Of a DNA stretch of 64,000 nucleotides, positions 22,606 through 23,241 are shown one piece after another. The notes beneath the pieces are model-generated. The model worked only from the letters and a program-made list of their open reading frames with translations, did not search any database and was not told where the DNA came from. The translations under genes were made by a program, and so were the position numbers. Source of the stretch: Escherichia coli (GTDB lineage: Bacteria; Pseudomonadota; Gammaproteobacteria; Enterobacterales; Enterobacteriaceae); assembly GCF_001677475.2 (NCBI RefSeq), contig NZ_CP015229.1; one strand, given 5' to 3'. Each line of letters begins with the position of its first letter. Within the stretch, counting starts at the first letter, position 1.

Positions 22606-22690
22606 GTTTGTATATTAGAATTCCGGCATCACTAATACGTGCAGATATCCGTGTATACTAGACGTATAAATTGTACAGGAGCACGATATC

Positions 22691-22924
22691 ATGACTGCAA
22701 AACGTACCACACAAAGTGTGACCGTCACCGTCGACCGTGAGTTAGTCAATCGCGCTCGTGATGCAGGCTTAAATATGAGCGCCACCCTTACGGTTGCGCT
22801 CAATGCTGAACTTAAAAAACATGCAGCAACACGTTGGCGTGAAGAGAACACAGAAGCTATCGCTGCGTTAAATCAATTGGCTGATGAAACCGGATGTTTC
22901 TCTGATGAGTACCGGAGCTTCTAG
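22691..22924 (+). CDS. ccdA: CcdA-family antitoxin (chromosomal ccd module)
   Basis: 77-aa ORF; VTVTVDRELV, RWREENTEAIAAL and GCFSDEYRSF segments parallel F-plasmid CcdA as recalled; immediately followed by a CcdB homolog. Confidence 0.85.
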   Translation: MTAKRTTQSVTVTVDRELVNRARDAGLNMSATLTVALNAELKKHAATRWREENTEAIAALNQLADETGCFSDEYRSF

Positions 22925-22926
22925 CG

Positions 22927-23241
22927 ATGCAATTTACGGTATACCGCAGTCGCGGCAGGAACGCCGCGTTTCCCTTTGTTATCGATGTTACCAGCGACAT
23001 TATTGGTGAGATTAATCGCCGTATCGTTATTCCATTAACACCTATTGAACGATTTAGCCGTATTCGCCCACCAGAACGGCTTAATCCAATCCTTTTACTG
23101 GTAGATGGCAAAGAATATGTGCTCATGACGCATGAGACTGCAACTGTTCCAGTTAACGCGCTGGGAACGACATTTTGCGATGCCAGCGCGCACCGAACGT
23201 TGATTAAAGGAGCATTAGATTTTATGCTCGACGGGATTTAA
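22927..23241 (+). CDS. ccdB: CcdB-family gyrase-poisoning toxin (chromosomal ccd module)
   Basis: 104-aa [40 protein letters not shown]; resembles F-plasmid CcdB (MQFKVY...DVQSDIID..RRMVIPL); starts 2 nt after the ccdA stop. Confidence 0.85.

Follow-up and report, generated by a model that had tools for sequence, protein, structure and literature searches.

What fills the space between folA and apaH in this Escherichia coli genome, and is it a toxin–antitoxin module that still works, a lineage-marking insertion, or an older resident of the site that is wearing away? The window, by which we mean the whole 64,000-nucleotide stretch of DNA analyzed here, had been interpreted from its letters alone as carrying a chromosomal CcdA/CcdB pair in the folA-apaH interval, and the present analysis follows up that sequence-only reading. 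The interval runs from 22606 to 23241 (636 bp), and its coordinates were confirmed by an ORF and sequence check, as were the two intact ORFs of 77 and 104 amino acids separated by 2 nt (CG) that had been reported there (Table 1). The reading we prefer, with a probability of roughly 0.85 that covers the workings proposed below, is that the segment holds an intact allele of ccdO157, a type II toxin–antitoxin module already known from the chromosome and a member of the 104-aa CcdB/77-aa CcdA subfamily that is widespread in Enterobacterales.

Table 1. Positions of the genes and other features in and around the folA-apaH interval of the window.
Feature	Position	Strand	Remarks
folA (dihydrofolate reductase)	22126..22605	+	left flank; ORF/sequence; annotated folA in syntenic loci L001, L002, L003
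folA-ccdA spacer, presumed ccd promoter/operator region	22606..22690	+	85 nt
putative CcdA operator, GTATAC-N5-GTATAA	22653..22669	+	window sequence compared with F ccd leader
ccdA antitoxin, 77 aa	22691..22924	+	ATG to TAG (22922-22924); PF07362, E=4.1e-26
ccdB toxin, 104 aa	22927..23241	+	ATG to TAA (23239-23241); PF01845, E=1.5e-31
apaH (Ap4A hydrolase), 282-aa allele	23238..24086	-	right flank
segment without K-12 counterpart	22615..23236		~622 bp versus ~67 K-12-specific nt; alignment and blastn-short

An AGGAG/GGAG box lies 9 nt ahead of the ATG of both ccdA and ccdB (for ccdA, AGGAG at 22677-22681), the TAA stop codon of folA occupies 22603-22605, and the convergent stop codons of ccdB and apaH overlap by 4 nt (TTAA, 23238-23241). 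The islet is bracketed by an 11-nt inverted repeat with one mismatch, GGAGCGGCGGT at 22593-22603 and ACCGCCTCTCC at 23248-23258; the idea that this repeat is the terminus of a mobile element was rejected, because folA and apaH, which converge here, resemble each other at their 3′ ends and thereby form it, and K-12 has it too in a shorter form.

Both proteins belong to the families to which they had been assigned. The Pfam matches are full-length, extending over residues 2-103 of CcdB (positions 1-101 of the 101-position model) and residues 8-77 of CcdA (positions 2-71 of 71), and sequence matches to solved structures were obtained with Vibrio fischeri CcdB (E value of 4.7e-17), F CcdB (2e-10), and F CcdA (9e-6), with PDB entries 2H3A and 2H3C among the CcdA structure matches. 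Given these Pfam and solved-structure matches, the two ORFs are real genes and not chance reading frames. An AlphaFold model of the window CcdB (pLDDT of 86.5) has a CcdB/MazF-type barrel with a long C-terminal helix at residues 87-102, and Foldseek aligned it with TM-scores of 0.82-0.86 to CcdB and CcdB:GyrA14 structures (1X75, 4ELZ, and 3TCJ), matching MazF at E>0.01 only. The RWxxEN motif of CcdA aligns with that of F CcdA. A search of the PADLOC defence-system models gave no family for CcdA or CcdB at E<=0.01.

The residues of CcdB expected to contact gyrase were found to be kept in part. The sequence-only reading had pointed to the equivalents of the C-terminal triad W99-G100-I101 of F CcdB, and the window protein ends in D102-G103-I104, in which the Gly and Ile are retained and the Trp, a critical residue in F CcdB, is replaced by Asp. 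The alignment used to judge this replacement contained the window CcdB and 28 other members of the 104-aa clade, plus F CcdB, and covered the genera Klebsiella, Enterobacter, Salmonella, Citrobacter, Dickeya, Pectobacterium, Xenorhabdus, Photorhabdus, Pantoea, Yersinia, and Morganella. In the 29 clade members, those from Dickeya included, D102 is nearly invariant and G103 is invariant. Because Asp is so nearly universal at this position in the clade, and because the corresponding residue is Thr in the GyrA14-bound CcdB of V. fischeri, Trp is no family-wide requirement; as judged by the alignment, the change of W99 to Asp is a trait of the 104-aa clade and no sign of inactivation. All clade-invariant residues are present in the window CcdB, which keeps Q2, Y6, S23, I25/I26, G103, and I104. 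It also retains G10, which is nearly invariant in the clade and is Ser in the O157 reference allele, while position 82 is a hypervariable column in which K, E, V, A, I, M, and L all occur.

The closest known system is ccdO157 of E. coli O157:H7, a module reportedly treated by Wilbaux et al. in 2007 and Mine et al. in 2009. The window module shares with it the folA-apaH site, the junctions, the gene lengths, and the 2-nt spacer; against O157:H7 strains, CcdA is identical at 76/77 residues, CcdB at 101/104, and the DNA of the module at 98.6%. The differences are S10, V28, and K82 in O157 CcdB versus G10, E28, and T82 in the window, and A54 versus T54 in CcdA. In O157:H7 strain 7636, the genes between folA and apaH are annotated as “CcdA family antitoxin” and “CcdB family protein.” That this is a described islet at the ccdO157 site was rightly stated: the islet and its decay have been reported (PMC2654758, PMC7167474, PMC3184786, PMC7232551).

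The allele carried by the window is of the CFT073 type. Its CcdB is the CcdB of CFT073/SCU-172 with one difference, K82T, and its CcdA is identical to RefSeq WP_000125568.1 (strains LR-28 and SCU-172). Thr82 stands where the other sampled CcdB alleles have Lys, and the T82 allele occurred in none of the 2,008 complete RefSeq genomes matching that stretch; in draft assemblies it was located in 63 contigs by a cluster look-up and in 106 index blocks by a contig look-up. One of the T82 carriers, the draft GCA_019136195.1, shows 100% identity to the window along 6.3 kb. Among complete E. coli genomes, the best match to window positions 12000-34000 reaches only 98.4% identity across the 22 kb, and because it is no closer, the lineage of the strain has poor coverage in the finished genomes.

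The region upstream of ccdA contains an operator-like motif. The GTATAC-N5-GTATAA sequence has the same 11-bp register as GTATAC-N5-GTATGT in the leader of F ccd; it stands 38 nt before the ATG in the window and 33 nt in F. In all 64 kb of the window there is a single GTATACN5GTAT, where 0.01 would be expected. The hexamer GTATAC is said to be bound by the ribbon-helix-helix domain of F CcdA, a finding credited to Madl et al. in 2006. The operator-like motif is conserved in E. albertii and in the non-coli Escherichia SCPM-O-B-8794, and the stretch 22640-22690 is almost invariant across these and E. coli. The leader also has a direct repeat (TGTATAYTAGA), whose copies TGTATATTAGA at 22609-22619 and TGTATACTAGA at 22652-22662 are 43 bp apart. 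A consensus scan of 22400-23500, leader included, gave no sigma-70 consensus promoter, and two -10 candidates picked by hand, TATACT (22654) and TATAAA (22665), were set aside because neither has a convincing -35. Over the same range, terminator-like sites were found neither on the minus strand nor in the leader, and on the plus strand there are just three, inside ccdB (22951-23021). A terminator-like GC hairpin at 22951-22968 on the plus strand (ccdB codons 9-14), followed by TTTCCCTTTG, was considered as an attenuator and dropped, a position of its stem being broken in O157; it is probably fortuitous. With no promoter consensus, and no terminator outside ccdB, read-through from folA and convergent transcription with the apaH operon are possible. 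The folA-ccd and apaH-operon transcripts could run antisense into each other, and in K-12 a REP palindrome stands at this spot. It is a remote possibility, too, that such convergence without a terminator ties the expression of ccdB to the apaH (Ap4A hydrolase) operon.

For the workings of the pair we propose the following. The two genes would be co-transcribed from the 85-nt leader, or through read-through from folA. CcdA, which is predicted to have a ribbon-helix-helix domain at its N terminus and a tail for CcdB binding at its C terminus, would bind the CcdB dimer and neutralize it, and the CcdA-CcdB complex might act on the GTATAC-N5-GTAT site ahead of ccdA to repress the operon. If CcdA, which is Lon-labile in the F system and may be so here, were depleted, free CcdB would be expected to bind GyrA and trap the cleavage complex, leading to double-strand breaks, SOS induction, and growth arrest. 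The window allele is likely to be toxic, with gyrase as its probable target, on the strength of its relative: the O157 module is described as toxic through gyrase, neutralized by F CcdA as well as its own, attenuated, and linked to drug tolerance (PMC10886550, PMC7354431, PMC10305079, PMC11059956). Gyrase poisoning and toxicity are reported for that 97%-identical O157 CcdB variant only (PMC10886550, PMC7354431), and the literature on the O157 allele hints at a weakened toxin whose main effect is to inhibit growth.

In K-12 the site looks quite different. The sequence-only reading had held that the same two intact ORFs in K-12 would speak against an islet, and MG1655 has no ccd ORFs between folA, which ends at 50302, and apaH, which starts at 50380; the 77-bp interval agrees with that given in the literature (PMC7232551). 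Only the first ~9 nt and the last T of this spacer are common to the window, and the remainder is a REP-like palindrome (GCCGGATGCGACGC...GCGTCTTATCCGGCC). The “short remnant” described for K-12 could not be upheld in the sense of ccd coding sequence, of which a blastn-short comparison with the window revealed nothing beyond chance length. A MAFFT alignment in which pieces of the K-12 spacer were scattered through the inside of ccd was discarded as spurious; the blastn-short matches amount to the shared ends plus chance or REP-like matches of <=13 nt. K-12 ApaH has 280 aa and the window protein 282 aa, owing to a 6-bp difference beside the junction.

The module proved to be far too common to serve as a marker of O157-type lineages, as had been suggested. 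Of 5,426 complete E. coli genomes, 2,024 gave a match to the 632-bp module and 2,021 (37% of all) had it at full length, always in a single chromosomal copy, and the carriers include O157:H7, O145, CFT073, UTI89, ST131, APEC strains, IAI39, and ST648. Other cargo occupies the folA-apaH site in 537 complete genomes (~10%; for example, L019 5596-6976 in E. coli AR13438) and consists of a cut-down CcdA of 59 aa and, after it, a hypothetical gene plus a DUF4291 gene on the other strand; there is no ccdB. This cut-down ccdA is 47% identical to that of the window, yet its last ~35 nt are nearly the same. The remaining half or so of the complete genomes have a short spacer, in line with a published estimate that ~50% carry a REP sequence at the site (PMC3184786). 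We propose that the folA-apaH site is plastic and has three alternative contents, of which the module is one, and that the module is exchanged by recombination involving the gene ends and is prone to losing the function of ccdB. In strain WL297 (L010 839-1570), a gene of the “plasmid pRiA4b ORF-3 family” stands in the place of ccdA and most of ccdB, and 72 bp from the 3′ end of ccdB survive beside apaH. A CcdB variant labelled E. fergusonii (P0007) has flanks 96-99% identical to the window and was taken as E. coli-like DNA and no evidence for E. fergusonii.

Did the module arrive in some strains, or was it lost from others? The word “inserted” used for it assumes a direction, and the same site is also occupied outside E. 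coli. The type strain of E. albertii, NBRC 107761, has a decayed ccd copy at the same site with the same junctions, its lesions being a 1-nt deletion in ccdA (a frameshift), TAG changed into TGG, ATG of ccdB changed into ATA, and Q2P. An intact copy with the same site and junctions exists in SCPM-O-B-8794, which is labelled E. coli but whose flanks are ~94% identical and thus those of a non-coli Escherichia. A scan of genome contigs returned two loci only, because its peptide patterns were near-exact, and implies no absence elsewhere. One alternative to be weighed is that the module was never inserted but is ancestral at this site in Escherichia and that the REP spacer of K-12 represents a derived loss. 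The 282-aa ApaH allele, which is common to E. albertii, SCPM-O-B-8794, and ccd-positive E. coli and is 6 bp longer than that of K-12, fits this alternative, as do the occupied sites of the two relatives and the case of WL297, in which ccd clearly came first and was overwritten later. The divergence of the module itself runs counter to it. Compared with E. albertii, synonymous changes affect 10/161 codons of ccdA and ccdB versus 85/428 of folA and apaH (p=2.6e-5), and compared with SCPM-O-B-8794, 17/172 versus 74/434 (p=0.03); a tract of ~1.1 kb (~22330-23450), which spans the module and both gene ends, shows roughly halved divergence. Such values point to later exchange instead of strict vertical descent, and because the synonymous divergence of ccd is below that of its flanks, the simplest reading suggests that homologous recombination of the flanks may have carried the ccd cassette from one Escherichia lineage to another. 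Purely ancestral presence followed by loss is thus doubtful, and both “inserted in O157-type strains” and “ancestral, lost in K-12” are too simple.

The intactness of the window pair also has to be set against the fate of ccdB elsewhere. In ST131 strain 4224, GGA is changed into TGA at codon 95 of ccdB (G95*), which removes the end of the C-terminal helix, and an exact 81-nt match to this allele is found in at least 413 complete genomes. ETEC4075 has a 13-bp deletion in ccdB, annotated as “frameshifted,” and coverage and identity classes indicate the deletion in ~259 genomes, a figure in keeping with 7 of 60 rows sampled at even intervals. Overall, ccdB is overtly broken in ~1/3 of carrier genomes, which suggests that selection for a working toxin is weak or lacking, and ccdA is intact in both of the broken-ccdB strains examined (ST131 4224 and ETEC4075). 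The dN/dS of ccdB is 0.18-0.52 versus 0.00-0.05 for the flanking genes, several-fold (5-10 times) higher, which indicates relaxed constraint. As reviews summarize Mine et al. 2009, natural CcdB variants can lose toxicity. The survey reproduces the published “decay” of ccdO157 (PMC2654758, PMC7354431). Because decay of ccdB is so frequent at the locus, intact ORFs are by themselves no proof of activity, and to call the module “biologically active cargo,” as had been done, was to overstate the case, given also Asp102 at the position of W99.

Another alternative, accordingly, is that the window pair only looks intact and is a neutrally drifting relic, with a CcdB that does not poison gyrase or is not expressed and with a visible lesion still to come. 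It would agree with the frequency of the G95* and 13-bp deletion alleles, with the decayed E. albertii copy, with the dN/dS of ccdB exceeding that of the neighboring genes, with the leader lacking a promoter consensus, and with the “degenerative process” described in the literature (PMC2654758). We nevertheless regard it as unlikely, since both ORFs are full length and have good ribosome-binding sites, all clade-invariant residues are kept and the single private change falls in a hypervariable column, the dN/dS of ccdB is still <1, and the closely related O157 variant is reported to be toxic (PMC10886550, PMC7354431).

The survival of ccdA where ccdB is broken, as in ST131 and ETEC4075, brings to mind a role in anti-addiction, in which the antitoxin would be the main reason for retaining the module: chromosomal CcdA would neutralize the CcdB of an incoming plasmid so that loss of the plasmid is not lethal. 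Such a role has been shown for the Dickeya chromosomal ccd of the 104-aa clade (cited in PMC2654758 and PMC10305079), and possible targets exist, as the nearest plasmid relatives, on a Hafnia alvei plasmid and a Klebsiella aerogenes IncFII plasmid, have the same 77-aa/2-nt/104-aa design, and their CcdBs, WP_040047078.1 and WP_320886685.1 respectively, are 71-73% identical to that of the window. We nonetheless consider this explanation quite improbable. F CcdA neutralizes CcdB-O157, but CcdA-O157 gives no protection against F CcdB (PMC7354431, PMC10305079), although a review states the opposite (PMC10886550), and ccd of the 104-aa clade is rare on E. coli plasmids, with >60% identity in only six of the 4,549 plasmid records that gave a match. 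The best “plasmid” match, at 97% (CP054241.1, 834 kb), was excluded because apaH lies beneath it and the record appears to be a mislabelled chromosomal piece. It is also very unlikely that everything combines into one account, in which folA-apaH has long served the genus Escherichia as a cassette site with several alleles (ccdAB; cut-down divergent ccdA with DUF4291 and a hypothetical gene; REP spacer), ccd crosses species by gene-end recombination with a synonymous divergence 2-3 times below that of the flanks, and intact copies are kept as CcdA neutralizes the 104-aa-clade CcdB of incoming IncF-like plasmids.

Several other features of the window were noted in passing. The sugar exporter gene setA (~1.2 kb), which lies between sgrS/sgrT and leuD in K-12, is absent at 51251-51285, where ~34 nt separate SgrS (51025-51251) from the stop codon of leuD (51285-51890). 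Between djlA and rluA, a single ORF of 253 aa at 31338-32099 (+) occupies the place of the overlapping yabP (216 aa) and yabQ (52 aa) of K-12. Rfam matches at 1820-1872, 48160-48259, 51025-51251, and 56010-56159 correspond to ES003 sRNA, a TPP riboswitch upstream of thi transporter genes, SgrS, and the leu leader, all of which are expected for the region.

What the analysis provides is correct genome annotation and not a discovery, and the current understanding of ccd systems is unchanged by it. The strain is marked as a carrier of an intact chromosomal gyrase-poison toxin–antitoxin pair, which is of relevance for cloning with ccdB-based vectors, for cross-talk between plasmid and chromosomal ccd, and for reports that tie the operon to drug tolerance and biofilm formation. 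To the published picture of decay, the survey adds figures from complete genomes: 37% carriers, ~1/3 of them with a broken ccdB, and ~10% of genomes with other cargo.

Set beside the known systems, the feature is not new: our preferred reading makes this copy an intact and, by its K82T change, slightly unusual allele of a common and often decaying E. coli polymorphism. With ccdAB of the F plasmid (CcdA of 72 aa and CcdB of 101 aa), the pair shares the Pfam families, the fold, the order of antitoxin before toxin, and the C-terminal Gly-Ile of CcdB. It is, however, only 36.6% (CcdB) and 27.9% (CcdA) identical to the F proteins, and not only W99 but also N95 of F CcdB is replaced, the latter by D98. 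Its scores against the F-type equivalogs of NCBIfam are 60.9 versus a cutoff of 147 bits for CcdB (NF010262) and 38.9 versus a cutoff of 100 bits for CcdA (NF010264); on these scores the pair is a family member and not of the F type, and because they are so far below the cutoffs, details of the F system need not transfer to it. Unlike F ccd, the module has turned up on the chromosome only and on no plasmid, and it is reportedly less toxic and without replicon stabilization (PMC10886550, PMC2654758). The resemblance is stronger to the 104-aa clade of Enterobacterales, found on the chromosome in Dickeya/Erwinia chrysanthemi and on plasmids in Hafnia, Klebsiella, Salmonella, and Pantoea, which has the same gene lengths of 77 and 104 aa, the 2-nt spacer, a C terminus of ...DG[I/V/F], and 55-74% identity to the window, but whose members occupy other genomic sites and have other palindromes upstream (GTGTAAGTTACAC in the Hafnia plasmid). 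The CcdB of V. fischeri (PDB 3JSC and 4ELZ) comes from a Vibrio integron/chromosomal context and is 36.6% identical; it is the best PDB match in both sequence and structure (TM-scores of 0.85-0.86), and it too has no Trp at the position of W99 (its sequence there being TGI) and nevertheless binds GyrA14.
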